From: Mycobacteriales bacterium
GTDB taxonomy: Bacteria > Actinomycetota > Actinomycetes > JADGOV01
NCBI GenBank assembly: GCA_038232055.1
Contig: JBBSIN010000005.1
Coordinates: 1 to 62,968, forward strand
Length of the DNA stretch: 62,968 nt
Direction: 5' to 3'
The number at the start of each line of letters is the position of its first letter. Positions within the stretch are counted from its first letter, which is position 1. The position numbers were made by a program, and so were the translations under genes. The notes below the pieces were generated by a model. The model was not told the origin of the DNA, did not search any database, and saw only the letters and a program-made list of their open reading frames with translations. Below are positions 320 through 37,320 of the stretch, piece by piece.

Positions 320-399
320 GATCTCCTTCGCCCGGCGTGTGGTGGCTGGCGGGCGGCTTTGGAGATCGTCGGGCCACAACAGCGCGAGCGAAGGAGATC
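320..399 (-). repeat. 80-bp GATC-bounded palindromic element (MITE/REP-like), copy 1, inverted relative to copies 2-4
   Basis: GATCTCCTTCGC at 320-331 and GCGAAGGAGATC at 388-399. The internal GATCTCC falls at offset 33 on the minus strand. Confidence 0.9.
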
Positions 400-497
400 G
401 TTTCCGGCGCCGGAAGATCGTTGGGGGCGGCCCGGCCGGACCCGGCGCGAGCCGGCGCCGCCCGACCCGCGCCAGACGCGCCCGGCCCACTGACGCG

Positions 498-612
498 GTC
501 CGAGGATTGGTCCGAGGGATGATCATGCCAATGCGAGCGTATGCGCCAGCATGATCTCCTCGGACAAGTCCTCGGACGATCACTCCGACGATTTCTCAGA
601 CGATCTCGGACG
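498..612. repeat. Imperfect ~30-bp inverted repeat (GATCATGC...GCATGATC core) running into a degenerate ~12-bp tandem array
   Basis: 498-528 GTCCGAGGATTGGTCCGAGGGATGATCATGC pairs with 549-577 GCATGATCTCCTCGGACAAGTCCTCGGAC. CTCGGACGAT/CTCCGACGAT/CTCAGACGAT/CTCGGACGAT units follow. Confidence 0.65.
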
Positions 613-765
613 ATTCCGCCGCAGGCTGGGAGATCAGCGGCGCGGTCCTTGGTCAACCGGGTCGGTGGTCCACGATCGTCGTGGTCTGCGCGCCGATCGC
701 GGTGCGTCAGTACCAGCGCTCGATCCGCTCCTGACGCCGTGAACGTCGTGGCCGGCCGGTCTCGG

Positions 766-1374
766 TCAGCCGCGTCGACGGCGGGGGAGCATGGCGAGGA
801 GGGCACCGAGTACGACGCCGAAGAGGAGGTGCGCGACCAGGAAGACGACGCCGCCGATCTCCCGGACGCCCTCGAAGCTCGACACCCGACGCTGCAGGAG
901 CGGACCGGCCTCGTACCCGAGCAGGACGAATCCCAGGAGGAACAAGACGAGCAACCAGGCGACGCCCAGCGCCACCAGTGACGGCACGGTCAACCGGGCC
1001 GCCCGCTGGCGTCGCGTGGTGAGTGCGGCGAAGACCCCGCCGGCGGCCGCCGACAGGACGGCGAGCCAGGCGAGGGCCGCGACCAGCCCCATCGCGCCGA
1101 ACCGGTAGTGCAGTTGGGAGACCCCAGGCAGCACCCGGCTACCGACGAAGATCGCGTACACCGACTTCAGCCCGTAGAGCACGCCATGTCCCTGGGCGAG
1201 TGCCACGACGGTGATCAGGACGAGATAGACCACTCCGGCCAGGAGGCCGGAGACGATGCCGCGGAGGATCCACGGTCCCAGCGGGATGGCCGCCAGCGGT
1301 GTCGACGTACCGCTCCGGTCGGTTCGTCGCAAGGGGGCGATTCGGCCGCGCTGGGCGTCGTTACTGCGTTCCAT
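766..1374 (-). CDS. 4-TM hypothetical membrane protein, similar to 30715-31221
   Basis: ATG at 1374 with GAGGAG RBS. Hydrophobic helices, ILRGIVSGLLAGVV...VAHLLFGVVLG. Confidence 0.75.
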   Translation of the reverse strand: MERSNDAQRGRIAPLRRTDRSGTSTPLAAIPLGPWILRGIVSGLLAGVVYLVLITVVALAQGHGVLYGLKSVYAIFVGSRVLPGVSQLHYRFGAMGLVAALAWLAVLSAAAGGVFAALTTRRQRAARLTVPSLVALGVAWLLVLFLLGFVLLGYEAGPLLQRRVSSFEGVREIGGVVFLVAHLLFGVVLGALLAMLPRRRRG

Positions 1375-1527
1375 CGGCCTCTCCTCGTCGTTTCTGTGAG
1401 TCGCGTGCGCCGCGTCACCTGAGGCACTACCCGCCCGGTTCCTGCCGGCTGCGCCACGTCCCGTGTTGTCACGAGACAGCAAGGCGTCGTCGGGCAGGAT
1501 GGGTCTGACACGCCACGAGGAGGCTCG

Positions 1528-2967
1528 ATGAACCCGCGCGGTTCGGCGGCCGCCGGAGGTGGCGGATGGCGGAGCTTTCGCCCGCGCAGCCGGTTCCGTC
1601 TGCTCGGTCTGCGCGCCCGGGTGAGCCTCCTGTTCGCACTCGGCGCGCTGGGCCTGTCGATCCTGCTGGCCGTCGTCACCTACCTGACGGTCAGTCGCTA
1701 CCTGTTCCTCCAGCGGGAGCGCGCGACGTTGCGCCAGACGAGTGCCAATGCCCGCGTGGTGCAGGACGCGCTGGCGGCCAGTGGTCTGTCGCCGCAACAG
1801 GTGCTCGACGGTGTGCACCGAGCGGAGCGCGTCGACGGGCCGGATTCGCTCCTGTTATCCGCGGGGGACTGGGTTTCCGCGTCGGGGCGGATCGGCAGCG
1901 ACGACCTGCCGCCGCAGCTTCGCCGAGAGGTTCGAGAGGGACAGCGGACGCAGCAGCGGGTCTCCATCGACGGCCGGCCGCGGTTGGCCGTTGCGGTGCC
2001 GCTGGTCCCGGCCGGCTCGGCGTACGTCGAGGTGTTTCCGCTAGACGAGCTCACCGCCGCGCTCCACACGCTGGCCGTCGTGCTCACCGGTGCCGCGGCG
2101 CTCACCACGGCACTGGGCGCCGTCGTCGGCCAGTGGGCGAGCCGCCGAGCGCTTCGGCCGCTGTCCGCCGTGACAGCCGCCGCCTCCGCCATCGCCGAGG
2201 GCCACCTCGACACGAGGCTGGACGGCGGGCGCGACCGGCAGCTCGGGTCGCTCGCAGCTTCGTTCAACGAGACGGCCGACGCGTTGCAGCGCCGCGTGCA
2301 GAACGACGCGCGCTTCGCGGCCGACGTCAGTCACGAGCTCCGCTCGCCGCTGACCACCATGGTCAACGCCGTCGAGGTGCTGCAGACCCGCCGGCACGAG
2401 CTCTCCGCGTCGGCGGCGGACGTCCTACAGCTACTCGACGCCGACGTACGGCGGTTCGAGCGCATGGTCCGTGAGCTGCTGGAGATCTCCCGCAGCTACG
2501 ACGGCAACGCCGATCTCGTCCTCGAGGACGTGCGCATCGGCGAGCTGGTCCGGCACGCCGCCGACGCGACCGCCGGCCGACCCGTGACCGTCGTGGTTCC
2601 CACCGCCGAGGCGCTGGTGGTCAAGGCCGACCGGCGACGGCTCGAGCGGGTCTTCGTCAACCTCGTGGAGAACGCCGAGCGGCACGGGCGCGGCATCGAC
2701 CGGGTGGTCGTCGAGCCGTCGGCGGCCGGGGTCCGCTGCTGCGTGGACGACGAGGGTCCCGGCGTGCCCCAGCAGCATTCGGCGCGCATCTTCGAGCGGT
2801 TCGCCCGTGGCCCCGCTGCGGCTTCTGCCGACGGCGGCGCGTCGGGCACCGGGCTCGGCCTGGCACTGGTGGCCGAGCACGCCCGGCTGCACGGTGGGCG
2901 CGTCTGGGTGGAGAACCGGCCGGGCGCCGGCGCCCGCTTCGTGCTCGAGCTCCCGGTCGTCGGCTGA
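1528..2967 (+). CDS. HAMP-domain sensor histidine kinase (MtrB/CseC-like)
   Basis: Two TM helices, HAMP, H-box DVSHELRSPL, NLVENA N-box, DDEGPG and GTGLGL G-boxes; GAGGAGG RBS. Confidence 0.95.
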   Translation: MNPRGSAAAGGGGWRSFRPRSRFRLLGLRARVSLLFALGALGLSILLAVVTYLTVSRYLFLQRERATLRQTSANARVVQDALAASGLSPQQVLDGVHRAERVDGPDSLLLSAGDWVSASGRIGSDDLPPQLRREVREGQRTQQRVSIDGRPRLAVAVPLVPAGSAYVEVFPLDELTAALHTLAVVLTGAAALTTALGAVVGQWASRRALRPLSAVTAAASAIAEGHLDTRLDGGRDRQLGSLAASFNETADALQRRVQNDARFAADVSHELRSPLTTMVNAVEVLQTRRHELSASAADVLQLLDADVRRFERMVRELLEISRSYDGNADLVLEDVRIGELVRHAADATAGRPVTVVVPTAEALVVKADRRRLERVFVNLVENAERHGRGIDRVVVEPSAAGVRCCVDDEGPGVPQQHSARIFERFARGPAAASADGGASGTGLGLALVAEHARLHGGRVWVENRPGAGARFVLELPVVG

Positions 2968-2980
2968 GGCAGGCCGCCGC

Positions 2981-3706
2981 TCAAACCGCCACCCGGTAGC
3001 CCAGCCCGCGGACGGTCAGAACGAGCCGTGGGTCGGCCGGATCCGGTTCGATCTTCAGGCGCAGCCGTCGGATATGGACGTCGATCAGCCGGGTGTCGCC
3101 GAAGTACCCGTAGCCCCAGACGCGTTCGAGGAGCTGCTCCCGCGTCACGAGCCGACCCGGCTCAGCGGTGAGCTCGCAGAGCAGCCGGAACTCGGTCTTC
3201 GTCAGCGGAATCGGCGCCCCGGCTCGGCGTACCACTCCCTGCCGAGGCAGCACCTCCAGGTCGCCGACCCGAACCGCATCGTCGCCGCCGCTGCTCTGAC
3301 GTGCCCGCCGCAGCAGCGCCCGGATCCGGGCATCGAGCTCCTTCGCGACGAGCGGCTTGGTCATGTAGTCGTCGGCACCGGCCTCCAGGCCGGCGACGAC
3401 GTCGGCGCTGTCACCGCGGGCCGTCACGACGATGACGGGTAGGTCGCCGCGGCGTCGAATCTCCCGGCAGACCTCGAGGCCGTTGATCCCGGGAAGCATG
3501 AGGTCGAGCAGCACGACGTCGGGCGGCTGCGCCTCCAGGCGTTGCAACCCCTGCTCGCCGCTGTCGGCCACGGTCACCCGGTAGCCCTCGTCCGCCAGGG
3601 CGAGGCCGAGCACGTGCCGGATCCGCGCGTCGTCCTCCACGAGCATGACGTGGGCGCCGATCGTGGCCGTCAGGGTGTCACCTGCTCGGTTGCTGCCGCT
3701 CGACAC
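2981..3706 (-). CDS. OmpR/PhoB-family response regulator (true start between 3646 and 3706)
   Basis: LVEDD, LLDLMLPG phospho-Asp, GADDYMTKP, winged helix IDVHIRRLRLKIE...TVRGLGY. Confidence 0.95.
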   Translation of the reverse strand: MSSGSNRAGDTLTATIGAHVMLVEDDARIRHVLGLALADEGYRVTVADSGEQGLQRLEAQPPDVVLLDLMLPGINGLEVCREIRRRGDLPVIVVTARGDSADVVAGLEAGADDYMTKPLVAKELDARIRALLRRARQSSGGDDAVRVGDLEVLPRQGVVRRAGAPIPLTKTEFRLLCELTAEPGRLVTREQLLERVWGYGYFGDTRLIDVHIRRLRLKIEPDPADPRLVLTVRGLGYRVAV

Positions 3707-4113
3707 TGGTCCGCCTGCTTCCGAACCGCGGGCTGCAGCTGGTCGAGCCGGGTCAGGACGCGGCGTACGGCCGCCGCGTCGAGGTTGCGGATGGCCCGGA
3801 CCCCGTCGCTGACGACGCCCAGCGCCTGCTCGGCCCGGTCGGCCGCCGCCAGGCAGGAAGCCGGGACCGTGACCGTGCGGTCGGCACTGACGCCTGCCGA
3901 CGGCGAGGGAGACGGCGTTGTGCTGCTCGCGGCCGCCGGCCTCGCGTTCCCGGTGTCACCGGCTTTCGTGACCCCGATCACGACGGCGCCCAGCAGCACG
4001 CCCAGCAGGAACGCTACGGCCGGGATCAGCCAGAAGCGCGCGCCGCCGCTCCGCCGAGGTGTGGGCGCAGGATCCGACGAGGGGACGTCGGTACGCCGCG
4101 GTTGATCGGTCAT
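3670..4113 (-). CDS. Single-TM membrane-anchored hypothetical protein
   Basis: GAGGAG RBS, one TM helix, Ser/Pro linker, helical domain with two Cys. The stop lies at the response regulator 5' end. Confidence 0.7.
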   Translation of the reverse strand: MTDQPRRTDVPSSDPAPTPRRSGGARFWLIPAVAFLLGVLLGAVVIGVTKAGDTGNARPAAASSTTPSPSPSAGVSADRTVTVPASCLAAADRAEQALGVVSDGVRAIRNLDAAAVRRVLTRLDQLQPAVRKQADQCRAAATEQVTP

Positions 4114-4238
4114 TCCAGCTCCTCAGCTCCGGCATCTGCAAGATCGAGTACCCGTGCCGCGCGGCAGGATGCGGACGGCAACCTTGCGAATGTGCGTCAA
4201 ACGGGTGCGAGAACCCGGCCTCGGGTAGTGCCCCGATC

Positions 4239-11905: not shown

Positions 11906-13014
11906 CGACGGCAGCGGACGCCGCGATCGAGTCGCTCGACGTTTCGGCCTACACCGTGCCGACCGACGCGCCGGAAGCCGACGGTACGGCGACGTGGGAC
12001 TCGACCACGCTCGTCGTCGTCGAGCCGGTCGCGGCCGGGGTGCGGGGGCTCGGCTGGTCCTACACCGGCGCGGCAGCGGCGGACGTCGTCAGCGGCGCGC
12101 TCGCGCAGGAGGTGCTCGGGCGGCCAGCGCTCGACGTGCCTGGTGCCGCGATGGCGATGGCCAGGGCGGTGCGCAACCTCGGCCGGTCCGGTCTCGTCGC
12201 GACGGCGATCTCCGCGGTCGACATCGCGCTGTGGGACCTCAAGGCGAAGCTGCTCGAGCTGCCGCTGTGCCGGCTGCTCGGCCAGGCGCACGAGCAGGTC
12301 GCGGTCTACGGCAGTGGCGGCTTCACGACCTACGACGGGAAGCAGACCCGGGATCAGCTCTCGCACTGGGTGCACGAGCAGGGCATCCCGCGCGTCAAGA
12401 TCAAAATCGGCGAGGCGCGAGGGTCGGCCGAGTACCGCGACGTCTCGCGGATCGCCCTCGCCAGGGAGGTCATCGGCAGTGCCGCGGAGCTCTACGTCGA
12501 CGCGAACGGCGGCTACTCGCGCGGACAGGCAGTCCGGATGGCGAGCCGGTTCGCCCCGTACGACGTCAGCTGGTTCGAGGAGCCGGTGTCGAGCGACGAC
12601 CTGCGGGGCCTGGCGTCGATCCGCGGCGAGGTACTACCCGACGTAGCGGCGGGGGAGTACGGCTACGACCTCGGCTACTTCGAGCGGATGTGCGGTGCGC
12701 AGGCGGTCGACTGCCTGCAGGTCGACCTCACCCGCTGTGGCGGCGTGACCGAATGGCTGCGGGCGGCCGCGGTGGCCGCCGGTCACCACCTGCAGGTGTC
12801 AGCGCACTGTGCACCGAACCTGCACGCGCACGTCGCGGCGGCGGTGCCGAACATCCGGCACCTGGAGTGGTTCCACGACCACGTCCGGATCGAGTCGATG
12901 CTCTTCACCGGTGCGCTCGACCCGGCCGGTGGCACCGTCACGCCGAACCAGGGTCGGTCGGGCCTCGGGCTGGCGCTGCGCCCGGTGGCAGCCGAGCAGT
13001 ACCGGGTGACCTGA
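11902..13014 (+). CDS. Enolase superfamily, mandelate racemase/muconate lactonizing subgroup enzyme
   Basis: AVDIALWDLKAK, KIK motif, metal ligands in DAN, WFEEP and AGE. Confidence 0.92.
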   Translation: MTTAADAAIESLDVSAYTVPTDAPEADGTATWDSTTLVVVEPVAAGVRGLGWSYTGAAAADVVSGALAQEVLGRPALDVPGAAMAMARAVRNLGRSGLVATAISAVDIALWDLKAKLLELPLCRLLGQAHEQVAVYGSGGFTTYDGKQTRDQLSHWVHEQGIPRVKIKIGEARGSAEYRDVSRIALAREVIGSAAELYVDANGGYSRGQAVRMASRFAPYDVSWFEEPVSSDDLRGLASIRGEVLPDVAAGEYGYDLGYFERMCGAQAVDCLQVDLTRCGGVTEWLRAAAVAAGHHLQVSAHCAPNLHAHVAAAVPNIRHLEWFHDHVRIESMLFTGALDPAGGTVTPNQGRSGLGLALRPVAAEQYRVT

Positions 13015-13019
13015 GCGTC

Positions 13020-13042
13020 GCGGGGCCGGTCAGCGGCCCCGC
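13020..13042. terminator. GC-rich hairpin between convergent genes
   Basis: GCGGGGCCG-gtcag-CGGCCCCGC, overlapping the VKOR stop. No U-tract. Confidence 0.5.
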
Positions 13043-13608
13043 AGCGATCGCCAGGCGGCGCGCGCCTCGGGCAGCACCAACGGCACCGCCGCCACGTTGA
13101 GCAGCGCCGCCACGGTGCAATAGGAGCAGAACCTGCGGTGCTTGCTCGCCTGCTCGGCGAACAGGTACAGGCCGCCCACCGCGTCGGCGGCCACCTTTGC
13201 GGCGAACAGCAGCGGCAGCACCGGTCGGGTGCGCCAGCGCTCGCCGTCGCCCATCCCCGCCAACGCCAGTGTCGCGCCGGCGCTGAGAATGCCGATGGAG
13301 CTGTCCGGCGTACGCAGCAGCTCGTAGGCCTCACCGCTCGCGTCGACCACGTCCGCCCCTAGGAAAGACAGCGGCGGCTCCGGCAGGTGGCGTACGACGC
13401 CGAACTGGTAGAGCCCCACGGCGCCCAGCGCAGCGGCGGCGCCCGTGGTCAACCCGGCGATCCGCCGGCGGTTGTCGAGGAAGGTTCCGCTGCCGCGGCG
13501 CAACGCGTCACTGACCTGTTCGGCGGCGGGAGAGGACGGGCGGCCAACGCCGCGATGCGTCGGTCGCGCGGCCGCAGCGGGCGGCCCCGCCGGTCGTCGT
13601 CGAGTCAT
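13030..13608 (-). CDS. Vitamin K epoxide reductase (VKOR) family protein, CxxC only
   Basis: TM helices and C-terminal FCSYC. ADVVDAS sits where CxxVxxS is expected. Start uncertain. Confidence 0.8.
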   Translation of the reverse strand: MTRRRPAGPPAAAARPTHRGVGRPSSPAAEQVSDALRRGSGTFLDNRRRIAGLTTGAAAALGAVGLYQFGVVRHLPEPPLSFLGADVVDASGEAYELLRTPDSSIGILSAGATLALAGMGDGERWRTRPVLPLLFAAKVAADAVGGLYLFAEQASKHRRFCSYCTVAALLNVAAVPLVLPEARAAWRSLRGR

Positions 13609-16809: not shown

Positions 16810-17577
16810 TCAGGTGCCTATTCGCACGCCGGCCGACACGCCCCACCGCGCGGCCACGAGCCGCTTCACGCCGGTCGGAAAGTCGGCGCCCGCCGCACGA
16901 TGCCCTTCGTACAGTGCGCGTTGAGCGCCGGCATCGCCGTCGAACGCCGCGATGCATCGCTCGGGCTCGACGTTGGCGAGGGCGAGGATCGCACCGGCCG
17001 CGCCGAGTACGCCCGCCATCGTGACCAGCGCCGCCGACCCGACGTAGGTGTCTCCGTCGTACGACGTCAGGGCCCCGAGCAGCCGATCAGGATCGCCGGA
17101 GGAGTCCTTGACGCCGACGACCGGCAGGTCCGGCAGCGCCTCGACCGCGATGCCGGGGGGCGACACGGCAGGGTAGGAGTAGGCCAGGACGCCCAGCGGG
17201 CCGGCCGCCTTGGCCACCGCGTCGTAGTACGGGCGCGGATCGGCGACGCGGGCCGGCGCCAGCGCGAGGACCGCGTCGGCGCCGGCGTCGACCGCCGACG
17301 CGGTGCGGGCGGCGGCCAGGCGCCCGGTCGGTGCGCCGGTGCCGGCGATGACCGGCACGTCGTCGGGCACGGCGGCCCGCACGGCGCCGACGAGTTCGGC
17401 CCGCTCCGGTTCGGTGAGCGCGACCGCCTCGCCGGTCGTGCCGGCCACCACGACGGCGCGGACGCCCACCTCGACGAGGTGCGCGGCCAGCGCACCGGAG
17501 GCGGCGGCGTCGAGGTCGCCGTCGTCGGAGAAGACCGTGATGAGCGCGACGCCGACACCGGCAAAGAGCTGGGGCAT
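16810..17577 (-). CDS. Dihydrodipicolinate synthase (DapA/NanA) family aldolase
   Basis: AGTTGE, VIAGTG, YSYP, Schiff-base GVKDSSGD. Confidence 0.88.
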   Translation of the reverse strand: MPQLFAGVGVALITVFSDDGDLDAAASGALAAHLVEVGVRAVVVAGTTGEAVALTEPERAELVGAVRAAVPDDVPVIAGTGAPTGRLAAARTASAVDAGADAVLALAPARVADPRPYYDAVAKAAGPLGVLAYSYPAVSPPGIAVEALPDLPVVGVKDSSGDPDRLLGALTSYDGDTYVGSAALVTMAGVLGAAGAILALANVEPERCIAAFDGDAGAQRALYEGHRAAGADFPTGVKRLVAARWGVSAGVRIGT

Positions 17578-17652
17578 CCCGACGCCCTACCCCGATCCCG
17601 CCCCGCCTACTGATGCCGGCCACCGACCGCTGCCGGCCACCGACCGCTTAGT

Positions 17653-17732
17653 GATCTCCTTCGCGTGCCCCGTGGTGGCTTGTCGATCTTCGAATGGCAC
17701 TTTTCACCACAACGGCCCGAGCGAAGGAGATC
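17653..17732 (+). repeat. 80-bp GATC-bounded palindromic element, copy 2
   Basis: GATCTCCTTCGC 17653-17664; internal GATCTTC at offset 33; GCGAAGGAGATC 17721-17732. Confidence 0.9.
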
Positions 17733-17798
17733 GCAACCGGGCGCTATCCCCATCCGTTGGTGCTCGATTCCCATCCCTCGGCGCTTGGCCGGCGCAGA

Positions 17799-18212
17799 TC
17801 ACGCTCCGGTCGACCCAGCGCTCCAGCCGCTCCAGTGCTCGACCTCGACCACGACCACGGGGCCGGCCGGCGGCTCGTCGGCGTACTGCGGGTACCGCGC
17901 CTGCAGGAGGCGGACGGCCCGTTCATCGATGTCGCAGACGCTGGCGGTGCCGTCGGCGCGTGCCCACCACAGCTGTGACCAGTCCTCGCTCCACCCGTCG
18001 ACGAGCAGGCACGCCCGCGGCTCGTGGACGATGTTGTCCAGCCGTGCCAAGCGGCGAGTGCGCTTGGGTTTGGCGTCGATCGCGCTGACGATGCGGTCGC
18101 CGTCGAGCGCGAACGTCACCGGCACCAGGTGCGGCGCACCCGAGGAGCGCACGGTGGCGAGTCGAGCGACCCGCGCTGTCGCGAACCGTCGCCGCACCTC
18201 CGCCGGCGTCAC
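17799..18212 (-). CDS. PPOX-class F420-dependent oxidoreductase (TIGR03668-like)
   Basis: ARVARLAT...PHLVPVTFA...DAKPK...LWWARADG. GTG overlaps the LLM stop. Confidence 0.88.
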   Translation of the reverse strand: MTPAEVRRRFATARVARLATVRSSGAPHLVPVTFALDGDRIVSAIDAKPKRTRRLARLDNIVHEPRACLLVDGWSEDWSQLWWARADGTASVCDIDERAVRLLQARYPQYADEPPAGPVVVVEVEHWSGWSAGSTGA

Positions 18213-19051
18213 GGCGCGCCGGCGACCAGCTCGGCGTCGGTGTCGAGCTTTCGGAGTACGACGTCCCGGCCGGCGCTCGGCACGGTGAGCAGGCACCGGT
18301 CGATCCCGATCTCGGCGTACCGGTCGAGGTTCGCCCGATTTCTAGCCCCGCCAAAGAGTGTCACGGGGATCCGGCCGCGACCGGTCGCCGCCGCCCGGTC
18401 GCGGAGCTCGGCGATCCGCCGACCCACGGCGTCGAGGTCGTCGGCCTGGTTCGGCATCCATTCGTCGCCGAAGTCGAGCACCCGGTCGAGGACGGTGGGC
18501 CCGTTGCCGCCGACCAGCACCGGCGGGTGCGGCCGCTGCACCGGCTTCGGCCACGACCAGATGCGGTCGAAGTCGACGTACGTCCCATGGAACGATGCCT
18601 CGTCCTCGGTCCAGATCGCCCGCATCGCCTGCACCCGCTCCGCCATCAGGGCCATCCGCGTGGCGGGGTCCGTGCCGTGGTTGGCCATCTCCTCGCGGTT
18701 CCAGCCGGCCCCGACGCCGAAGAGCACCCGCCCGCTGGACACCAGGTCGAGGCTGGCCACCTCCTTCGCCGTGACGATCGGGTCGCGTTCGACGACCAGG
18801 CAGATTCCGGTGCCCAGCCGCAGATTCGAGGTCGCCGACGCGACCGCGCCGAGGGCCACGAAGGGGTCGAGTGTGTGCCAGTAGTACTCGGGCAGCTCTC
18901 CGCCGCCGGCGTACGGCGTACGCCGGCTCGCCGGGATGTGCGTGTGCTCGGGAAAGAACAGCGACTCGAACCCGCGCTGCTCGACCGCCTGCCCCAGCTC
19001 GACCACGCCGATGGCGGAGTCGGCCGGGAACATGATGACGCCGTACTCCAC
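18209..19051 (-). CDS. LLM-class F420-dependent oxidoreductase (TIGR03619-like)
   Basis: PEHTHIP, DPFVAL, RDPIVTAKEVASLD, GVGAGWNREE. Confidence 0.92.
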   Translation of the reverse strand: MEYGVIMFPADSAIGVVELGQAVEQRGFESLFFPEHTHIPASRRTPYAGGGELPEYYWHTLDPFVALGAVASATSNLRLGTGICLVVERDPIVTAKEVASLDLVSSGRVLFGVGAGWNREEMANHGTDPATRMALMAERVQAMRAIWTEDEASFHGTYVDFDRIWSWPKPVQRPHPPVLVGGNGPTVLDRVLDFGDEWMPNQADDLDAVGRRIAELRDRAAATGRGRIPVTLFGGARNRANLDRYAEIGIDRCLLTVPSAGRDVVLRKLDTDAELVAGAP

Positions 19052-19060
19052 GCTGCCTCC

Positions 19061-20470
19061 CTAGCTCGATGTGCTGGCTGACGCGGGCAGCGCCCGGAGC
19101 ACGTAGGCGTCGACGGCGGCGTCCTTACCCTTGACCCGCAGGCCGGACATGGCCTCCACCGCGACACCGTCCGGCAGCCGCCGGTAGGTCTCCGCGCCGA
19201 TCAGTACGGCGCCCACCGGAGCTTGCCCCTCGAGGCGGGAGCCGAGATTGACGGTGTCGCCGACTCCGGCGTAGGCCACGTAGCCCTGCCCGCCCATCTC
19301 GCGTACGACGGCCTCGCCGCTGTTGACGCCGACGCGAAGTCCTGGCCACCCGGGATGCCCGGCGGCCACTCGGGTCAGCTCTCGCTGCAGCGCCAGCGCG
19401 GCGCCGACAGCGCGCAGCGCATGGTCCGGCTGGTCACCGCGGCTGTTGAACGTCGCCATAATGCCGTCGCCCATGAACTTCTCCACCTCGCCGCCGAAGC
19501 GTCGGGAGATGAGCGGTGCTGCGACCTCGTAGTACTCGCTCAGCATGGCCGCGACGTCGCTCGGCCTCGAGCGCTCGGAGAACGTTGTAAACCCGGCGAG
19601 GTCGCTGAACAGGACGCTCACGTCCTGGCTCCGCTCGCGCGTCGTGGACAGGTAGAGATGGCGAAAGCGCTCGTCGCGCCACTCCCGGCGGGCCGCGAAC
19701 AAGACCACGAGGTATGCCGTGACGATGAGCCCGTGCCATTCCCACCAGCTCGCGTGCCAGCTGCGCTCGCCGGTCACCGCGACGCCGATCATCGCCTCGG
19801 CAAGGAGGACGAAACACGCGACGACGCTGGCCGGCAGCAGCCCCAGCCGTTCCCGGTACACGCCGAGGTAGCGAACTGCCGACATCGCGTAGACGACCGT
19901 ACCCAGCGCGGCCATGACGCCCAGCAGACTGCGGACGCTGCCTTCGCTGCTCGGCCGGTCGAGAGGCGGCAGCTGTGTCAGAGTCCACCCGGACCACACC
20001 GCTATGACGGCGAGCAGCGTCGCTCGCAGCAGCCGCCTGCGTCGCATGACGATCGGGGCGAACGCGGGCCGCAGGTCGACGAAAGCCGACGCCGCACCGA
20101 AGAGCGAGGCCACCAGGAGCCCCACCGGAATGGCGACCTTGAAACCCGACAGGTCGCTGGAGAGCAGGATGCCCGGCGTACCGATGGCGTGCAGCATCAG
20201 GAAGCCACCGGTGGCCAGGAACGCCAACGACAGCAGCAAGACCCGGGCGTCCCCGCGACGTTCGGCCGCCTCGCCCGCCGCGTAGGCGAGGACGGAAGCA
20301 GTGCCGCCGACGAGCAGGAAGAGCACGAAGTGCAGGCGGTGGTTGTCCCAATGCGGGTCCAGCTTGGCGCGCAGTAGCAGCGAGACGAGGCCCGCGAGTG
20401 GCAGCGCCGCAGCCAGTGCCCACCTCACGGCGACCGCGGCATCGCCGGCCCGACGCCCGGCAGATGGCAT
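19061..20470 (-). CDS. Membrane-bound class III adenylate/guanylate cyclase
   Basis: About 7-8 TM, then FSDLAGFT, EKFMGDGIM, GDTVNLGSRL. Start uncertain (20428-20470). Confidence 0.9.
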   Translation of the reverse strand: MPSAGRRAGDAAVAVRWALAAALPLAGLVSLLLRAKLDPHWDNHRLHFVLFLLVGGTASVLAYAAGEAAERRGDARVLLLSLAFLATGGFLMLHAIGTPGILLSSDLSGFKVAIPVGLLVASLFGAASAFVDLRPAFAPIVMRRRRLLRATLLAVIAVWSGWTLTQLPPLDRPSSEGSVRSLLGVMAALGTVVYAMSAVRYLGVYRERLGLLPASVVACFVLLAEAMIGVAVTGERSWHASWWEWHGLIVTAYLVVLFAARREWRDERFRHLYLSTTRERSQDVSVLFSDLAGFTTFSERSRPSDVAAMLSEYYEVAAPLISRRFGGEVEKFMGDGIMATFNSRGDQPDHALRAVGAALALQRELTRVAAGHPGWPGLRVGVNSGEAVVREMGGQGYVAYAGVGDTVNLGSRLEGQAPVGAVLIGAETYRRLPDGVAVEAMSGLRVKGKDAAVDAYVLRALPASASTSS

Positions 20471-20556
20471 GGCCACGGCGCATGTTATCGCGCACCAGCT
20501 GCCAAGGGACGGCGCAGCACCCGACCGGAAACAGGGGTACCCCGACGGACCAGCCG

Positions 20557-21621
20557 TCAGTGGACCCGGACGCCGCCGATCACGATGGCTGCCGGGCGGG
20601 CGAGCACCTCCGGGTCGGTCCGCGGGTCGGCGTCGTAGGTGACGACAGCGGATGGTGCATCGGCCGCGTCCGCGCCGAGAAAGTCCCGGGCGGTCGTCGT
20701 GGCCGCCCGCAGCGCGATGACCGGCTCGACACCGCATTCGACGAGGAGCGCGACCTCGCGCGGTACGGAGCCGACGACGTCGCTGCCGGTGAGGATCGGC
20801 ACGCCGTGCCGCACGGCGTCCGGCAGCAGCTCCGCAAAGAGCTGACGGCGCTCGGCCACCCGCCGCCGTCGCTCCTCCGGGGCATCGGGCGCGCAGGCGA
20901 GTACGGCGCACAACGTCGGTGTCCAGGCGATTCCGCGCCGCCCCATCTCGGCCACCGTCCCCGCATCGAGCGCCGTGCCGTGCTCGATCGAGTCGACGCC
21001 GAGCGTCACGAGGTCGGCGGCCAGCGGGAGGGTGACGTGGGCCGCGACGCGGGCACCCGCAGCGTGGGTGGCGCTGACGAGCCGGCGTACGACGTCGAGT
21101 CCGTAGGTCTGCTCCGGTGACGGCAACGGCGCGGACCCGCGCGCCCGGGCGGGGACGAAGTCGGCGACGAGCTTCACCCAACGAGCCCCTTGCTCCACCT
21201 CTGCCACGGCGATGTCGACGACATCCGCGGGTTCCGCCGGCAGGTGCACCGCATCGAAGTACATGCCCCGTGGCGCCAGGTGCCGGCCGGCGGGCACGAC
21301 GAAGGGACGGCCGGCGATGCGCAAAAGGTTCAATACGACACTCGGCGTGCCGCCCGCGTCCCGTACGAGCGCCACACCGTTCCGGGCGTACCGCTCCCGA
21401 TTCCGCTCCGCGCCGGCAGCGTCGAGCGGCACCGGCCCGTCGGTGCCCGCACCAAAGCTTAGGTGGCTGTGCGCATCGACAAGACCGGGCAGTGCGAACC
21501 GGCCGGGCAGCCGCTCCGCCTCCGGAATGGGATCGTCGCGCCAGCCGTCTGGCGTGAGCCAGCGATCCTGCTCACTCGTGCCGTCCGGAAGGTGGGTCGA
21601 GCGCATGTACCAAGCGGGCAC
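20557..21621 (-). CDS. Amidohydrolase family protein
   Basis: LPGLVDAHSH, AAH, SIEHGT, GSD metal-binding pattern. Confidence 0.85.
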   Translation of the reverse strand: MPAWYMRSTHLPDGTSEQDRWLTPDGWRDDPIPEAERLPGRFALPGLVDAHSHLSFGAGTDGPVPLDAAGAERNRERYARNGVALVRDAGGTPSVVLNLLRIAGRPFVVPAGRHLAPRGMYFDAVHLPAEPADVVDIAVAEVEQGARWVKLVADFVPARARGSAPLPSPEQTYGLDVVRRLVSATHAAGARVAAHVTLPLAADLVTLGVDSIEHGTALDAGTVAEMGRRGIAWTPTLCAVLACAPDAPEERRRRVAERRQLFAELLPDAVRHGVPILTGSDVVGSVPREVALLVECGVEPVIALRAATTTARDFLGADAADAPSAVVTYDADPRTDPEVLARPAAIVIGGVRVH

Positions 21622-21737
21622 GCGTTCACCCTTTCACTCGCGGTCGGGGAGGTGGGCCTGGGCTGGGAGTCCCTAGCGCGCGGCGGCGGATCTCAAGGCG
21701 TACTTTCGGGGGCAATAGGCCAACCGCGGAGGCAGCA

Positions 21738-22052
21738 GTGACAACGCCCGAACCCACGCCATCCGATGAACCCCTGCGGCGGGATCGACGGGAGCACGGT
21801 GGCGCGCCGGCACATCCCGACGACGACGCCCTCGCAGAACGCACGGAGGCCGAACGGGTCGACGCGGGGCTCGAGGACTACGACCCCGACCAGGTACCGG
21901 CGGCTACGGACAGCCCCACGGAGCTGGACATCACCGACACGCCTGAGTATCAGGACGAAGCGGCGGAGGTAAACCAGCAGCTCGCGGCCGGCGAGCTTCG
22001 GACGGAAGGCGACGATCGACCGTTCCCGCCCAGCGGCTACGACCGATCCTGA
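21738..22052 (+). CDS. Small acidic hypothetical protein
   Basis: GGAGG RBS plus GTG; Asp/Glu/Pro-rich 104 aa; fills the gap between features. Confidence 0.7.
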   Translation: MTTPEPTPSDEPLRRDRREHGGAPAHPDDDALAERTEAERVDAGLEDYDPDQVPAATDSPTELDITDTPEYQDEAAEVNQQLAAGELRTEGDDRPFPPSGYDRS

Positions 22053-22094
22053 ACGACACCGCGGTTGGGCGTGTACACGTCGCCAACCGTTGTC

Positions 22095-22174
22095 GATCTC
22101 CTTCGCTCGGCCCGTGGTGGCGTGTTGATCTCCAAACGGCCCTGTTCACAACAACAGGCAGGGCGAAGGAGATC
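22095..22174 (+). repeat. 80-bp GATC-bounded palindromic element, copy 3
   Basis: GATCTCCTTCGC 22095-22106; internal GATCTCC at offset 33; GCGAAGGAGATC 22163-22174. Confidence 0.9.
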
Positions 22175-22216
22175 GCAGGCGGGCGCCGGACCGCAGCTGT
22201 GTACGTCGGACGTCGC

Positions 22217-22660
22217 CTAGGTCGCGTCGAGTCCGGTGATGCGTTGCAGGAGCTGGTCGTCAGGCAGCGCCGCCGGAACCTCGACGTCGGCGGCCGGAGC
22301 GAGCGCGGCGACGGCGGCGATTCCCGCGCCGACGACGGCTGCCGCCGTTGCGATTCCGAGAAGGACCGTGGGAAGCGCTCCCGCGAAGACAGCGGCCGCG
22401 ACAAGTCCCACGGCGGCACCGAATCCCGACCCGATCAGGCCCATGCCAATGCCCTCCAGGGTGACGAGACGGGACAGCGGCCCCTCGCGCCAGCCGATGG
22501 CGCGCAGGGTGGCGAACTCCGCGGAGCGCTCGCGGATGTTGAGGTAGAGCACGTCGGCCACCGCGACCGCGCCGAGCAGCACGGTCACGGCTGCGGCGAG
22601 GTAGTCCACACCGCGGATCTGCACGGAGATCGCATCACCGAGGAGGGAGCCGACGATCCG
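22217..22660 (-). pseudogene. Orphan C-terminal fragment of FtsX-like ABC permease
   Basis: GSLLGDAISVQIRGVDY...NIRERSAEFATLRAIGW...LEG is a permease C-terminus. No N-terminal part, no ATPase partner, non-homologous tail. Confidence 0.75.
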
Positions 22661-22721
22661 CCGCCCGGCGCCCCGACCGCCGAAGCGGTCGGCCGCTCGT
22701 TAGACGCGAGTCGTCGGGGAC

Positions 22722-22763
22722 TGTGGAGTCCCGTGAGTGCCCCAACACTGACGGGACTCCACA
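22722..22763. repeat. 42-bp element with perfect 13-bp terminal inverted repeats (TGT...ACA); possible IS481-type end remnant or terminator
   Basis: TGTGGAGTCCCGT (22722-22734) and ACGGGACTCCACA (22751-22763). Confidence 0.6.
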
Positions 22764-22816
22764 CCGCTGGCTGTCGCCTCGGGGACGAGCGGAGTTTGGT
22801 GTCCCTGAGCCGACGC

Positions 22817-23710
22817 TCACGGCGCCAGGTCCATCGCCGCGCTCTCCAGGTGTGGCTGGTCGACGGACTCCTGCACGCACCGGGCGAAGAGCCACCAACG
22901 CAGCCGTTCGGCGTCGAGGTCGAGAAGGTCGGCCATGCGCTGCGCGAAGCCCGCAGGATCTGCGAGGAGGCGGTCCGGGAAGTTGAGCATGTGCTGCAGC
23001 GGGTCGTACGTCGGGTCGCCGACGTACGGCTTCGGGTCGATGACCAGCCATGGCTCTCGCTGCGCGGCCAGCACGTTCTCGGGATGCAGGTCCGTGCACA
23101 GCAGCACGCAACGCTCGGCCGTGCCCGGCAAGCCGCGGAACAGCTCAATGCCAACCCGCGCGAGACCGGGATCCAGCCGAAGCCTTTGGTCGGCAGCGGC
23201 GTACCGCTCCTCGAACTCGTCGGCCCACCGATGGCACATGCTCTGCAGGGTGCGGAACGGGGAGCCGGTCGGCGGCTCGATCCAGAGCCGGCGCAACAGG
23301 CCGGCGACGACAGTGTCCTGCTCCGGTGGCGGCACACCCTGCGACAGGGCGGTGCCCGGCTCGCAGGCCTCGAGCAGCAGCGCGCTGGTCTCGCCTACGA
23401 CCAGCGCATCGAGGAGTCGAACCGCGCCGTCGCCGTCCCATGCTCGCAGGCCCTCAACCTCATGCAGCGCCTCGTCGTGACGCCAGCCGACCTTCAGCAC
23501 GAGGTGCCGCCCGGCCGGATTCCGCGCCGGAGCCACCCAGGAGGCGACCCCACCCGGTTGGCAGGGCCGGCCCAATTCGAGCGACCAACGCCGCGCCAGG
23601 TCGTGTACGACGAGCGGCAGTGCGGCCATCCAAGTTCGCCGCGACGAGTCGGCGTCGTCGGCTTCCTCCACCGCCTGCACCAGATTCCTCGGCAGCTCGA
23701 ACCCGAACAC
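22817..23710 (-). CDS. APH(6)/hydroxyurea-type aminoglycoside phosphotransferase family kinase
   Basis: GAGGAGG RBS plus GTG at 23710. VLKVG, EVEGLRAWDGDGAVRLL, LCTDLHPENVL, WLVIDPKP. Confidence 0.88.
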   Translation of the reverse strand: MFGFELPRNLVQAVEEADDADSSRRTWMAALPLVVHDLARRWSLELGRPCQPGGVASWVAPARNPAGRHLVLKVGWRHDEALHEVEGLRAWDGDGAVRLLDALVVGETSALLLEACEPGTALSQGVPPPEQDTVVAGLLRRLWIEPPTGSPFRTLQSMCHRWADEFEERYAAADQRLRLDPGLARVGIELFRGLPGTAERCVLLCTDLHPENVLAAQREPWLVIDPKPYVGDPTYDPLQHMLNFPDRLLADPAGFAQRMADLLDLDAERLRWWLFARCVQESVDQPHLESAAMDLAP

Positions 23711-30675: not shown

Positions 30676-30714
30676 TCCCAGCCTCCGCGGTCGACAGCCG
30701 ATCCGGCCCAGCCG

Positions 30715-31221: not shown

Positions 31222-31436
31222 CGGCAGACCCCTTCGTCTTCCGGGACGGGGTCCGGACACCCGATCCCACTGACATCTAGGACGCGCACACCGGACCGTT
31301 GATTGCGCCGGCCCCCGACCGCCGGGTCGTTGCGGTCCACGTTCTCGTCCCGCCCGCGGCGTGCGGAACCGTCGCCGCGGGACTAAACCTGAGCCCACGG
31401 AGTCGGGCCTTGCGCGAGTGCTAGACCTGTCTAATG

Positions 31437-31652: not shown

Positions 31653-31671
31653 GTCGCCCTTCATTGTGCGG

Positions 31672-33534: not shown

Positions 33535-33594
33535 CCCGGCGAGCGTAGGGGACCGGGCCGTTGAGCGGCGCTCGGCGTCCACAGCCGGCCGACC

Positions 33595-34587: not shown

Positions 34588-34649
34588 TGACGGAAGGCTA
34601 ACGCGCGCGCCGCTACGCTCGCGGGAATCCGGCCCGGGAAAGGACGCAG

Positions 34650-35699
34650 ATGCGGCTTGGAGTGAATCTCGGCTATCGGGGTGCGGGAACCGACTCGGAC
34701 CCGCTCGTCGTTGCCCGGGAGGCCGACCGGCTCGGCTTCTCGGTCGTGTGGGCGGCGGAGGCGTACGGCGTCGACGCCGCGACCGTGCTCGCCTGGGTGG
34801 CCGCCCGTACCGAGCGCATCGACGTCGGGTCGGCGGTGTTCCAGATTCCCGCCCGGTCGCCCGCGATGACCGCGATGACCGCGGCCACCCTCGACGCGCT
34901 CTCCGGCGGCCGTTTCCGGTTGGGCCTCGGCGTCTCCGGCCCGCAGGTCTCGGAGGGGTGGCACGGCGTGCGCTTCGCGGAGCCGCTCCGCCGGACCAGG
35001 GAGTACGTCGGAATCGTCCGGCGCGCACTGGACCGCCAGCGGGTGGAGTACGCCGGCCGGCACTACACGCTGCCGCTGCCCGACGGGCCGGGCAAGGCCC
35101 TGCGGCTGACCGTGCCTCCCGTGCGCGACCGGATCCCGCTCTATCTCGCGGCGGTCGGCCCACGCAGCCTCGAACTGGCCGGCGAGATCGCCGACGGCTG
35201 GCTAGCGATCTTCTTCGCGCCCAACTTCTCGGCTGAGCAGCTGGCGTCGGTCGGCACCGGTCGCGACCGGGCGGGAAAGGGTATGGCCGACTTCGACGTC
35301 GTCGCCAGTGTGCAGCTCAGCGTTGGGGACGACGTCGCGGCCTGCGCCGACCGGCTGCGTGGCCATGTCGCGCTCTACGTCGGCGGCATGGGCAGCCGCG
35401 AGCAGAACTTCTACAACGGGCTGGCCAGGCGGATGGGCTACGACGCCGCCGCCCGGGAGGTGCAGGACCGCTACCTCGCCCGCGACCACAGCGGCGCGAT
35501 GGCCGCCGTACCGCACGAGTTCATCGACCGGACGTCGCTTCTCGGCCCGAAGGAGCGCATCGCCGAACGGATGCGCGAGTTCGCCAAGGCGGGCGTGACG
35601 ACGCTGTCGGTATCGGTCGCCGGAAAGTCCGCCGACGAGAAGGTCGCGGCGATCCGGACGGCCGCGGAGGCGCTCGACCTGGCCGGGGGCGGCGCGTGA
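34650..35699 (+). CDS. LLM-class F420-dependent oxidoreductase (TIGR03559-like)
   Basis: WAAEAYGVD, QIPARSPAMTAMTAATLD, LGLGVSGPQVSEGWHG. Confidence 0.92.
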   Translation: MRLGVNLGYRGAGTDSDPLVVAREADRLGFSVVWAAEAYGVDAATVLAWVAARTERIDVGSAVFQIPARSPAMTAMTAATLDALSGGRFRLGLGVSGPQVSEGWHGVRFAEPLRRTREYVGIVRRALDRQRVEYAGRHYTLPLPDGPGKALRLTVPPVRDRIPLYLAAVGPRSLELAGEIADGWLAIFFAPNFSAEQLASVGTGRDRAGKGMADFDVVASVQLSVGDDVAACADRLRGHVALYVGGMGSREQNFYNGLARRMGYDAAAREVQDRYLARDHSGAMAAVPHEFIDRTSLLGPKERIAERMREFAKAGVTTLSVSVAGKSADEKVAAIRTAAEALDLAGGGA

Positions 35700-36526
35700 A
35701 CGTCCTGCAGGCCGCCGTGCTCGGCGTCGTCGAGGGGCTCACCGAGTTCGTCCCGGTCTCCAGCACCGGCCATCTCACGGTCGTCGAGAAGCTTCTCGGG
35801 CTGAAGGTCGACGACACCAGCATCACCGGCTTCACCGCGGTCATCCAGATCGGCGCCATCGCGGCTGTCCTGCTCTACTTCCGGATGGAGCTGACCCGGC
35901 TCGTCGTCGCCGGGCTGCGCGGCCTGAGGTCGGCCGACGTGCGCCGGGACGACCCGGACTTCCGCCTCGCCTGGTACGTCGTCGCGGGCTCGATCCCGAT
36001 CGGAATCGTCGGGTTCCTCGGGAAGGGGGTCATCGAGGGGCCGCTGCGCAACCTCTGGGTGGTCGCGGCGGCTCTGATCGTCTGGAGCGCGGCCATGGTG
36101 TACGCCGAGCGGGTCGCCTCGCAGCGCCGCCACGAGAGCGACCTGCGGCTGCGCGACGTCGTCGGGATCGGGCTGTGGCAGTGCCTGGCTCTGGTGCCCG
36201 GGGTGTCGCGCTCGGGCGCAACGATCAGCGCGGGCCTCATCCGCGGCATCGACCGGGTGACCGCGACGCGGCTCTCGTTCTTCCTCGGCATCCCGGCGCT
36301 CGTCGCCGCCGGCCTGTTCACCCTCAAGGACGCGCTCGCCGGCAGTGTCGGCGCGGTGCCCACCCTCGTGGGCATCGTGGTGTCGTTCGTCGTGGCGTAC
36401 GCGTCGATCGCGTGGCTGCTGCGCTTCGTCGCCCACCATCCGATCACCCTCTTCGTCTACTACCGGGTCCTCGCCGGGATCGTGGTCATCGGATTGCTGA
36501 TCTTCGGCGTTGTCGCGGCGACGTGA
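35696..36526 (+). CDS. uppP: Undecaprenyl-diphosphate phosphatase
   Basis: VEGLTEFVPVSSTGH, IQIGAI, PGVSRSGATI. Confidence 0.95.
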   Translation: MNVLQAAVLGVVEGLTEFVPVSSTGHLTVVEKLLGLKVDDTSITGFTAVIQIGAIAAVLLYFRMELTRLVVAGLRGLRSADVRRDDPDFRLAWYVVAGSIPIGIVGFLGKGVIEGPLRNLWVVAAALIVWSAAMVYAERVASQRRHESDLRLRDVVGIGLWQCLALVPGVSRSGATISAGLIRGIDRVTATRLSFFLGIPALVAAGLFTLKDALAGSVGAVPTLVGIVVSFVVAYASIAWLLRFVAHHPITLFVYYRVLAGIVVIGLLIFGVVAAT

Positions 36527-37239
36527 GCACGGTCCTGTTCGTCCGGCACGGTCTCACCACGATGACCGGGCCCGTTCTCGCCGGCTGGACACCGGAGGTG
36601 CATCTCGACGAGCGGGGGCGCGAGCAAGCCCGCACTCTCGGGGAGCGGCTGGCGCCGGTGCCGCTCGCCGCCGTCGTTGCCAGCCCGCTCGAGCGCTGTC
36701 AGGAGACCGCGACCGCGCTGGTGGCCGGTCGCGACGGACCCGCCGTCGAGACGGATGACCGGGTCGGTGAGTGCCGCTACGGCGACTGGACCGGCCAGGA
36801 GCTGAAGAAGCTGGCCAAGGACCCGCTTTGGCAGGTCGTGCAGGCGCATCCCAGCGCCGCGTCGTTTCCCGGCGGCGAGGCGCTGCGCGACATCCAGGTC
36901 CGCGCCGTCGATGCCGTCCGCGACTGGAACGAGCGTCTCGGGCCCGAGTCGACGTACGCCGTCGTCAGCCACGGCGACGTCATCAAGGCGGTGCTTGCCG
37001 ACGCGCTCGGGCTACACCTCGATCTCTTCCAGCGCATCGTCGTCGACCCCTGCTCGGTCAGCGTGGTGCGCTACACCTCGCTGCGTCCCTTCGTCGTCCG
37101 GATGAACGACACTGGCGGGACGGTCGCCGACCTGCTGCCGCCGAAACGGAAGGGCCGGCGACGCCGTGGTGCCGGATCGGGCGCCGGGGGCGCCCGGGGC
37201 GCCGACTCCGACGCCCCGGTCGGCGGGGGAGCCGGCTAA
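36523..37239 (+). CDS. Histidine phosphatase (MSMEG_4193-like putative phosphomutase)
   Basis: FVRHG, SPLERCQET, ECRYGDWTG, VSHGDVIK. Confidence 0.9.
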   Translation: MSTVLFVRHGLTTMTGPVLAGWTPEVHLDERGREQARTLGERLAPVPLAAVVASPLERCQETATALVAGRDGPAVETDDRVGECRYGDWTGQELKKLAKDPLWQVVQAHPSAASFPGGEALRDIQVRAVDAVRDWNERLGPESTYAVVSHGDVIKAVLADALGLHLDLFQRIVVDPCSVSVVRYTSLRPFVVRMNDTGGTVADLLPPKRKGRRRRGAGSGAGGARGADSDAPVGGGAG

Positions 37240-37240
37240 C

Positions 37241-37320
37241 GATCTCCTTCGCTCGGCCCGTGGCGGTTAGTTGATCTCCACGTGGCGCTGCCGGCAACAA
37301 CAGCCAGGGCGAAGGAGATC
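37241..37320 (+). repeat. 80-bp GATC-bounded palindromic element, copy 4
   Basis: GATCTCCTTCGC 37241-37252 (1 nt after the stop); internal GATCTCC at offset 33; GCGAAGGAGATC 37309-37320. Confidence 0.9.

Follow-up and report, generated by a model that had tools for sequence, protein, structure and literature searches.

Four copies of a palindromic element in the window

The window analyzed here is a 62,968-bp stretch of contig JBBSIN010000005.1 from a Mycobacteriales bacterium, and it carries dispersed copies of an 80-bp palindromic element that an earlier note, made from the sequence alone, had described. The window is contig C5 of the source assembly (G000), a metagenome-assembled genome (MAG) of 2.22 Mb in 92 contigs with 71% G+C and a completeness of 86%. 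A search for the pattern GATCTCCTTCGC-N56-GCGAAGGAGATC finds the element four times, at 320-399, 17653-17732, 22095-22174, and 37241-37320. Each match is 80 bp long with perfect 12-bp inverted ends, as the note had claimed, and dinucleotide shuffles of the window give no match to this pattern. The four copies align with a common right end, GAAGGAGATCGC, and at offset 33 each has GATCT(C/T)C for a third time, again in agreement with the note.

Copy 1 (320-399) belongs to sub-family B and lies 109 bp past the stop codon of an upstream repeat-protein gene. Its off-centre GATCTCC is on the minus strand, which confirms that this copy is inverted with respect to the other three. Copy 2 (17653-17732, plus strand) has on one side the stop codon of a PNPOx-like gene at 17799-18296 and on the other the start codon of a DHDPS-like gene at 16810-17577, both encoded on the minus strand. 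Copy 3 (22095-22174, plus strand) is related to sub-family A and has stop codons 42 bp away on each side. It continues into a right-hand extension at 22175-22277 (plus strand) that is common to other sub-family A copies and into which run the final codons of an FtsX-like gene fragment of 135 aa, read from the minus strand. Copy 4 (37241-37320, plus strand) is a sub-family A member that begins 1 nt past the stop codon of a histidine-phosphatase gene (36175-37239) and is 97.6% identical to the copy at C41:15236. A displaced piece of the sub-family A right-hand extension is found at 37391-37486 (plus strand), with ~70 bp of unrelated sequence between it and copy 4. The nearest stop codons are thus 109, 66, 42, and 1 bp from the four copies, and their intergenic location close to stop codons is as first described.

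Conserved ends and a rigid span across the source genome

The source assembly contains 25 copies with both ends perfect, 31 copies with two or fewer mismatches per end, and ~5 more that are degenerate or partial, for a total of ~36. The element is the largest palindrome family of the genome, and it is an orphan in the assembly. The note had expected a high genome-wide copy number; the count is moderate rather than very high. Length is 80 bp in 27 of the 31 copies and 79 bp in the other 4, and all 31 are intergenic according to the home-made codon-usage caller used for the genes around the copies.

With the off-centre GATCTC as the reference for orientation, the 31 copies can be aligned nearly gap-free. 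The conserved blocks are, in order, (C)GATCTCCTTCGC, 7 free bases, GTKGYNGYT, 4 semi-free bases, GATCTCY, ~13 free bases, RGCMACMAC, 6-7 free bases, and GCGAAGGAGATC(G). The GTKGYNGYT and RGCMACMAC blocks mirror each other, as do the ends, and the central GATCTC is the sole asymmetric block. Each arm consists of the 12-13-bp invariant end (C)GATCTCCTTCGC, 7 free bases, and GTKGYKG, and the two arms face each other across the fixed 79-80-bp span. The arms are ~27 bp long and not self-palindromic, and the ends carry no GTAG or CGTC tag.

Between-copy identity is 98% in the ends and 60% in the interior. The terminal sequences contain 7 substitutions in 744 nt versus at least 73 expected under interior-like drift on terminal branches, a comparison subject to the ascertainment caveat that copies were found via their ends; a covariance model and BLAST added only ~5 decayed copies. 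These values, together with the constant length, bear out the proposal that the ends and length of the element are under constraint far beyond passive decay.

Distribution and a sister family in a second genus

Exact-end scans of 40 relatives and of 401 genomes from 174 genera of the class locate the family only in G000 and in G002, a genome of the same family and a different genus. The covariance model (R1) detects ~24 copies in G002 and none in G001 and G003, which belong to the same genus as G002. A relaxed end pattern run over 185,579 species genomes returned 41 single matches, all unrelated, and a pattern scan of metagenomes returned one match, also unrelated. BLAST searches of plasmid and phage collections gave nothing, and the 12-mers of the family appear in papers solely as primers. 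The distribution is lineage-restricted and patchy.

The G002 copies form a sister family with ends GATCTCCTTGGC/GCCAAGGAGATC that differ from those of G000 by a symmetric C:G to G:C change (CTTCGC to CTTGGC). Length is 79 bp in 16 copies and 80 bp in 6, and the ends are 96% identical and the interior 43%. The N7-GTGGY block is retained, and the central GATCTC is absent. The G002 copies are often clustered, arranged in tandem with 3-bp spacers, or present as half-elements. At two G002 loci the orthologous gaps of G003 are ~170 and ~96 bp shorter and element-free.

RNA, coding, and GATC readings

RNAalifold, applied to the aligned copies, retained no structure other than the 13-bp terminal stem. 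With a symmetric hairpin model, good pairing is confined to invariant positions, and pairing beyond the 13-bp stem is poor. Pair counts reveal essentially no compensatory change, and covariation, a check suggested by the earlier note, was not found. At the K/M positions of GTKGYKG/CMACMAC the commonest pair is G.A (16 of 31), and these positions are neither enriched in pairing types nor correlated for pairing. The whole element folds with z scores of -4 to -5.7 owing to the terminal stem, and for the 56-nt interior neither strand folds more stably than its dinucleotide-shuffled versions (mean z ~ -0.4). Rfam models at gathering scores identify only a tRNA in the window, and eight copy-holding loci give no match at E <= 1, which agrees with the view of the element as a dispersed REP- or MITE-like (repetitive extragenic palindromic; miniature inverted-repeat transposable element) family outside Rfam. 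A terminator scan of 17000-23000, which includes two copies, detected no terminator-like site. The right flanks begin GCAACC or GCC and contain no U-tract.

Recognition therefore appears to be at the DNA level, through conserved sequence blocks at fixed spacing in the duplex rather than through a structured RNA, because the fold is confined to the stem, covariation is missing, the interior has no excess of folding, and the K/M positions are mostly G.A. The note had left open whether the fixed geometry reflects protein recognition or RNA structure; protein-recognition geometry fits the data better, and the structured-RNA option is not supported.

Coding and regulatory readings were also considered. 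The copies have no conserved reading frame, and a cysteine-rich peptide encoded on the reverse strand (...CDLLRPGCCCRQRHVEIN*) was rejected on the ground that neither the frames nor the sequence upstream of them are shared by the copies. A riboregulator of the Shine-Dalgarno/anti-Shine-Dalgarno type was discarded on the finding that the outward AAGGAG has no start codon after it. An integron attC site, suggested by the AAC/GTT-rich arms, was dismissed on the basis that the copies are dispersed and not in cassette arrays, although no search for an integrase was made.

The three GATC sites of the window copies had been seen as a possible protein-binding geometry. The third GATC is not a family feature, since the sister family in G002 lacks it, and genome-wide GATC is neither avoided nor enriched in G000 (observed/expected 0.97). 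A GATC methylation or restriction geometry was rejected on the same two findings. Among the other 4-bp palindromes, CTAG is strongly under-represented across G000 (observed/expected 0.42) and all the rest are near expectation.

Flanking sequence and placement

Sub-families share sequence outside the 80 bp. In sub-family A the shared sequence extends ~22 bp to the left (gccggaacccttNgtc) and 60-190 bp to the right. The copy at C3:17878-17940 of G000 is an internal-deletion derivative of sub-family A in which the left flank and the first 26 nt of the core are joined to the right-flank sequence gcgcccgaccgccatctgca. This junction of core nucleotide 26 to the right flank indicates that the flank travels with the core. 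The flanks shared within sub-families and the deletion copy together mean that the repeated unit can exceed the 80-bp palindrome. The exact 80-bp unit first described is accordingly correct for the core (79-80 bp) and too short for sub-families with conserved sequence beyond it. The right flank of copy 3 provides the final codons and stop codon of the FtsX-like fragment. The possibility that the right flanks of sub-family A are the 3' ends of paralogous FtsX genes was considered and discarded: a single FtsX fragment exists, and the likeness is at the nucleotide level and is a property of the repeat.

The GATC at each end is its own reverse complement and can be read as part of a terminal inverted repeat (TIR) or as a target-site duplication. 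No consistent direct repeats were found outside the ends, and the flanks co-vary with the sub-family.

Placement was analyzed with confident genes only. Convergent gaps hold 10 of 29 copies versus 16% of the available intergenic length (p = 0.01), and divergent gaps hold 3 of 29 versus an expected 28% (p = 0.04). In same-direction gaps, copies are oriented 9:5 with respect to transcription, which is no clear bias. Five copies begin 1-11 bp past a stop codon. The placement of the element avoids promoters and favours the 3' ends of genes.

Other repeats occur in the same gaps. Short GC-rich tandem repeats with 12-21-bp units adjoin many copies (for example at G000:C1:33375+, C23:6617+, C57, C58, C37, and window positions 400-490), and the intergenic gaps of G000 look like mosaics of several repeat families.

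A nuclease gene bracketed by the sister family

The transposase, RAYT (REP-associated tyrosine transposase), or TnpA gene flanked by the same ends that the earlier note had envisaged was not found in G000. RAYT (PF01797) has no match in G000, and in a search of the four genomes of the family, in which control genomes scored, no match passed the cut-off. Neither a longer element with distant end pairs nor a solo end beside a transposase-like open reading frame (ORF) was found in G000, and multi-copy DNA resembling an insertion sequence (IS) was not found in the assembly, which is 86% complete.

A bracketed gene was found in G002. The C72 gene (locus L120, 742-1767, 341 aa) is surrounded by three copies of the sister family, two upstream (L120 470-554 and 614-698) and one downstream (1766-1850) that begins 2 nt past the stop codon. 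By a rough estimate, with ~25-30 copies and ~2,700 gaps in G002, the chance of copies on both sides of a given gene is ~1 in 10,000. The C72 gene has no orthologue in G001 and G003, where the best matches have 30-38% identity, and this matches the absence of the repeat from both genomes.

The C72 protein has an N-terminal AbiEi_4 domain and a C-terminal DUF559/MTES_1575 domain in Pfam. PADLOC AbiEi models match residues 4-151, and a profile of the protein family matches the DUF559 structure 3hrl. The AlphaFold model of the protein has a mean predicted local distance difference test score (pLDDT) of 95 and a predicted template modeling score (pTM) of 0.90. Its N-terminal half resembles AbiEi (6y8q) and Rv2827c (1zel), and its C-terminal domain resembles the homing endonuclease I-Bth0305I (3r3p), DUF559 (3hrl), and Vsr (1vsr) with template modeling (TM) scores of 0.64-0.76 on the target. 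Residues E, D, ExDG, R, and W are invariant across homologues, and E..D..ExDG corresponds to the acidic catalytic motif. AbiEi proteins bind inverted repeats, including those in their own promoters (PMC7319586). A nuclease was among the candidate binders listed by the note, and the gene flanked in G002 is of that general kind; the exact class, an AbiEi-DUF559 nuclease, had not been named.

AbiEi-DUF559 genes bracketed by their own palindromes

Genes of the AbiEi-DUF559 type are commonly bracketed by a palindrome of their own. Both sides are flanked in 18 of the 24 genes examined, which break down into 4 of 5 in G000, 3 of 5 in G002, 3 of 4 in G003, and 8 of 10 distinct metagenomic homologues. 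The metagenomic homologues of the C72 protein have 40-47% identity to it. PF04480 genes are present in G000, G002, and G003. In G002 the C94, C44, and C72 genes are bracketed, and the C218 and C235 genes are not.

In G000 the genes on C25, C80, C53, and C46 are flanked on both sides and the gene on C40 upstream only. The C25 palindrome, GATCATGGGGTTTG...CAAACCCCATGATC, begins and ends in GATC and lies at C25:12176-12250 and 13348-13409, on either side of a DUF559/MTES_1575 gene at 12332-13216 (minus strand). The gene at C80:3811-4704 has the palindrome CGGGGCCGATTGACCACAT..ATGTGGTCAATCGGCCCCG, the gene at C46:16552-17439 has TTTGGCAGAAGAACCCGTC..GACGACTTCTTCTGCCAAA, and two GGTTGTGTGTCG..CGACACACAACC hairpins lie upstream of the gene at C40:11671-12438. 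The gene at C53:9035-9988 is bracketed by a heptamer-lattice repeat family, a member of which also occurs in the window at 490-615, ~100 bp from copy 1 of the 80-bp element. This repeat consists of GTCCGAG/CTCGGAC words (GGTCCGAG and CTCGGAC) every 12 bp in opposed arrays about a fixed centre. The bracketing palindromes are themselves dispersed in G000, at ~12 (C25), ~9 (C80), ~23 (C53), and ~6 (C40) places and at a few for C46.

The same layout is found in a homologous nuclease cassette on the JGI contig Ga0556608_0000096 (L123, 1686-3038), which has CTTCGCAGCTCTG/CAGAGCTGCGAAG palindromes on both sides. This cassette lies between ruvC and yebC, near pdxT, pdxS, ruvA, and ruvB, and has the appearance of an insertion among housekeeping genes. 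A literature search returned no paper that links DUF559 or AbiEi-nuclease genes to dispersed palindromes.

Proposed mechanism and alternatives

On balance, and with moderate confidence, we favour the reading that the 80-bp element is a non-coding, dispersed palindromic satellite of the REP/REPIN or MITE kind that acts as DNA and depends on an AbiEi-DUF559 nuclease cassette. The bracketing by the sister family in G002 suggests a selfish repeat system similar to REP/RAYT that is run by a different kind of enzyme. The arms (12-mer, N7, and GTKGYKG) would be the sites for the AbiEi-type winged-helix module of a trans-acting DUF559/Vsr-like PD-(D/E)XK nuclease, and two protomers would bridge the arms, an arrangement that would account for the rigid 79-80-bp span and the free interior. 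The nuclease domain would nick or cut at or near the ends, with copying then occurring via repair or replication. The nuclease gene and the palindromes on either side of it would make up a small cassette, much as REPs bracket RAYT genes, and solo palindromes would be its non-autonomous copies. Selection would act at the level of the element, such that only copies with intact ends and span keep spreading. This would account for perfect ends on deeply diverged interiors, and a fast loss of dead copies would account for the scarcity of decayed ones. Effects on transcripts, such as hairpins at 3' ends and ribosome stalling next to stop codons, would be by-products.

A nuclease of this kind would bind, cut, and spread the palindromes, and a cognate gene would be present, or have recently been present, in G000. 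The near-perfect ends of the orphan family suggest that its partner lies in the unassembled 14% of the genome or was lost very recently. Several points weigh against this reading. The partner in G000 is an extrapolation from one locus in another genus, made for a MAG that is 86% complete. None of the five AbiEi-DUF559 genes found in G000 by tblastn and hidden Markov model (HMM) searches is flanked by the 80-bp element, and the family HMM detects no gene fragment within 600 bp of any G000 copy. No pair of empty and filled sites was resolved: the intergenic DNA of G003 cannot be aligned to that of G002, and the G000 loci are too diverged from all relatives. No target-site duplication is evident, and the genes around the copies were called with the home-made caller. 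Bracketing is a correlation, and the palindromes could be operators or preferred landing sites instead of products of the gene. To our knowledge the AbiEi-DUF559 protein class has no known biochemical activity on palindromes, and none was found in the papers searched. Of the 12 metagenomic homologues, some have no palindrome and the others have different ones, and GATCTCCTT ends occur in none of them.

A classical MITE, meaning an internally deleted derivative of an IS with 12-13-bp TIRs that is moved in trans by a DDE transposase missing from the assembly, is an unlikely explanation. The perfect 12-13-bp TIRs, small size, intergenic location, near-identical sub-family members (97.6%), and patchy distribution are all typical of MITEs, and IS copies are often dropped in assemblies, that of G000 being in 92 contigs. 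However, no longer element with these ends and no solo end by a transposase-like ORF was found, no consistent target-site duplication is evident, and the sole gene found bracketed by the family encodes a nuclease of another class. The conserved flanks past the TIRs and the deletion copy that keeps them further indicate that the copied unit extends beyond the TIRs. The MITE-like logic of kept ends and a free interior would be compatible with an AbiEi-DUF559 nuclease as the enzyme. Signs of copying also count against fixed, immobile sites of a host DNA-binding protein, whether nucleoid-organizing, regulatory, or an AbiEi-type autoregulator with a regulon: near-identical sub-families with non-functional flanks, tandem duplications, half-elements, and deletion derivatives are not expected of such sites, and neither are absence from two relatives of the same genus (G001 and G003) and placement at gene 3' ends instead of promoters. 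The two-fold symmetric blocks at fixed spacing, the lack of a pairing requirement, the conservation of the ends in situ, and the binding of AbiEi proteins to inverted repeats in their own promoters (PMC7319586) would suit protein sites, and we nevertheless place this explanation somewhat below the MITE.

Host-serving functions at the transcript level were weighed on the same data. The 13-bp GC-rich stem, which would form in transcripts of both strands, might act as a bidirectional terminator or 3'-end stabilizer kept at each locus by host selection. Enrichment in convergent gaps, depletion in divergent gaps, the five copies 1-11 bp past a stop codon, and the whole-element folding z scores of -4 to -5.7 from the terminal stem would follow from such a role, and high-GC actinobacteria often lack terminators with a U-tract. 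Against this role, a U-tract is missing, the terminator scan was empty across two copies, and Rfam has no match at E = 1. A stem-loop leaves unaccounted for both the conservation of unpaired motifs (GTKGYKG and the central GATCTC) and a length that is constant at 79-80 bp, covariation is missing, and relatives of the same genus manage without the element at orthologous gaps. This role is improbable, a shade more so than the MITE and a shade less so than the fixed protein sites. A family of small structured non-coding RNA genes is far less credible than any of these. The stable predicted hairpin and conserved sequence blocks are what such genes would have; covariation, interior structure, an Rfam match, and promoter-like sites are all missing, the two strands are equivalent, and the interior of the G002 sister family is close to random.

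A broader version of the nuclease-satellite reading is more tentative. Actinomycetota may harbour a widespread class of selfish elements, parallel to REP-RAYT but with another enzyme, composed of a free-standing AbiEi-type nuclease gene bracketed by a 60-90-bp palindrome, the ends of which the protein would recognize in the duplex at a fixed spacing, with a distinct palindrome for each gene lineage, several systems per genome, and dozens of solo copies, of which the GATCTCCTTCGC family would be the largest here. By itself, the 80-bp family adds one lineage-specific intergenic repeat to those already known, albeit one of unusual anatomy with perfect ends, a near-random interior, and a rigid length of 79-80 bp. 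The combination of AbiEi-like and DUF559 domains is a very common, uncharacterized actinobacterial protein type that is usually annotated as an antitoxin or as hypothetical. If the proposal is correct, it would represent a second, mechanistically different solution to the REP/RAYT lifestyle, provide a function for many "DUF559" genes, account for many unrelated palindrome families in the intergenic regions of high-GC actinobacteria, and offer a source of nuclease and sequence-specific DNA-binding pairs whose cognate sites are known. In genome annotation, such elements are best masked as repeats and not called as RNA genes or ORF ends.

Comparison with known systems

REPINs are reportedly treated in the work of Bertels and Rainey. 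The REP/REPIN-RAYT systems of Proteobacteria resemble the 80-bp family in several respects: short extragenic palindromes occur in tens to hundreds of copies as singlets, inverted doublets, or clusters, a single-copy gene is bracketed by repeats, the distribution is lineage-specific and patchy, and copies lie at the 3' ends of genes. REP classes are imperfect palindromes of 20-40 bp, one end of which bears a conserved tetranucleotide, GTAG or CGTC (PMC3733652). In contrast, the 80-bp family has neither this tag nor a Y1/HUH RAYT gene, and the candidate enzyme combines a winged helix-turn-helix with a PD-(D/E)XK (DUF559/Vsr-like) nuclease. The element is also a poor hairpin past its 13-bp stem and has conserved blocks at fixed spacing instead.

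The Correia elements of Neisseria and the enterobacterial repetitive intergenic consensus/intergenic repeat unit (ERIC/IRU) MITEs of Enterobacteria likewise have TIRs, a length of 80-170 bp, no coding capacity, an intergenic or co-transcribed location, and sub-families (PMC10969869, PMC3184786). For the family described here, in contrast, neither a target duplication, of TA or another kind, nor a parent IS was found, and its length is unusually rigid at 79-80 bp although the interior diverges by 40-57%.

The N-terminal half of the C72 protein shares its fold (6y8q, 1zel) and its Pfam and PADLOC signatures with the AbiEi antitoxins of type IV AbiE toxin-antitoxin systems (PMC3985639, PMC7319586). 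It differs from them in that its C-terminal half is a nuclease domain and that inverted repeats flank its gene on both sides and are dispersed in the genome. Between the bracketing repeats in L120 the C72 gene has no other ORF next to it, and an AbiEii partner is not evident there, although no AbiEii search was made. The C-terminal domain has the fold of I-Bth0305I and the Vsr/DUF559 nucleases and an invariant acidic catalytic motif in common with them. Unlike these enzymes, the C72 gene is free-standing, outside any intron or intein, has no visible link to a methyltransferase, and is associated with dispersed palindromes.

Other features of the window

The DHDPS-family ORF next to copy 2 (16810-17577, minus strand) spans only positions 2-214 of the 289-position Pfam model and may be truncated or frameshifted. 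The first 204 bp of the window contain two 84-bp stretches, 120 bp apart and 96% identical, within the coding region of a gene that ends at ~210. The product of this gene, with the protein tail TWWVA, resembles an FG-GAP/VCBS-like repeat protein by eye, and similar 120-bp repeats are found on C15, C43, C41, and C6.

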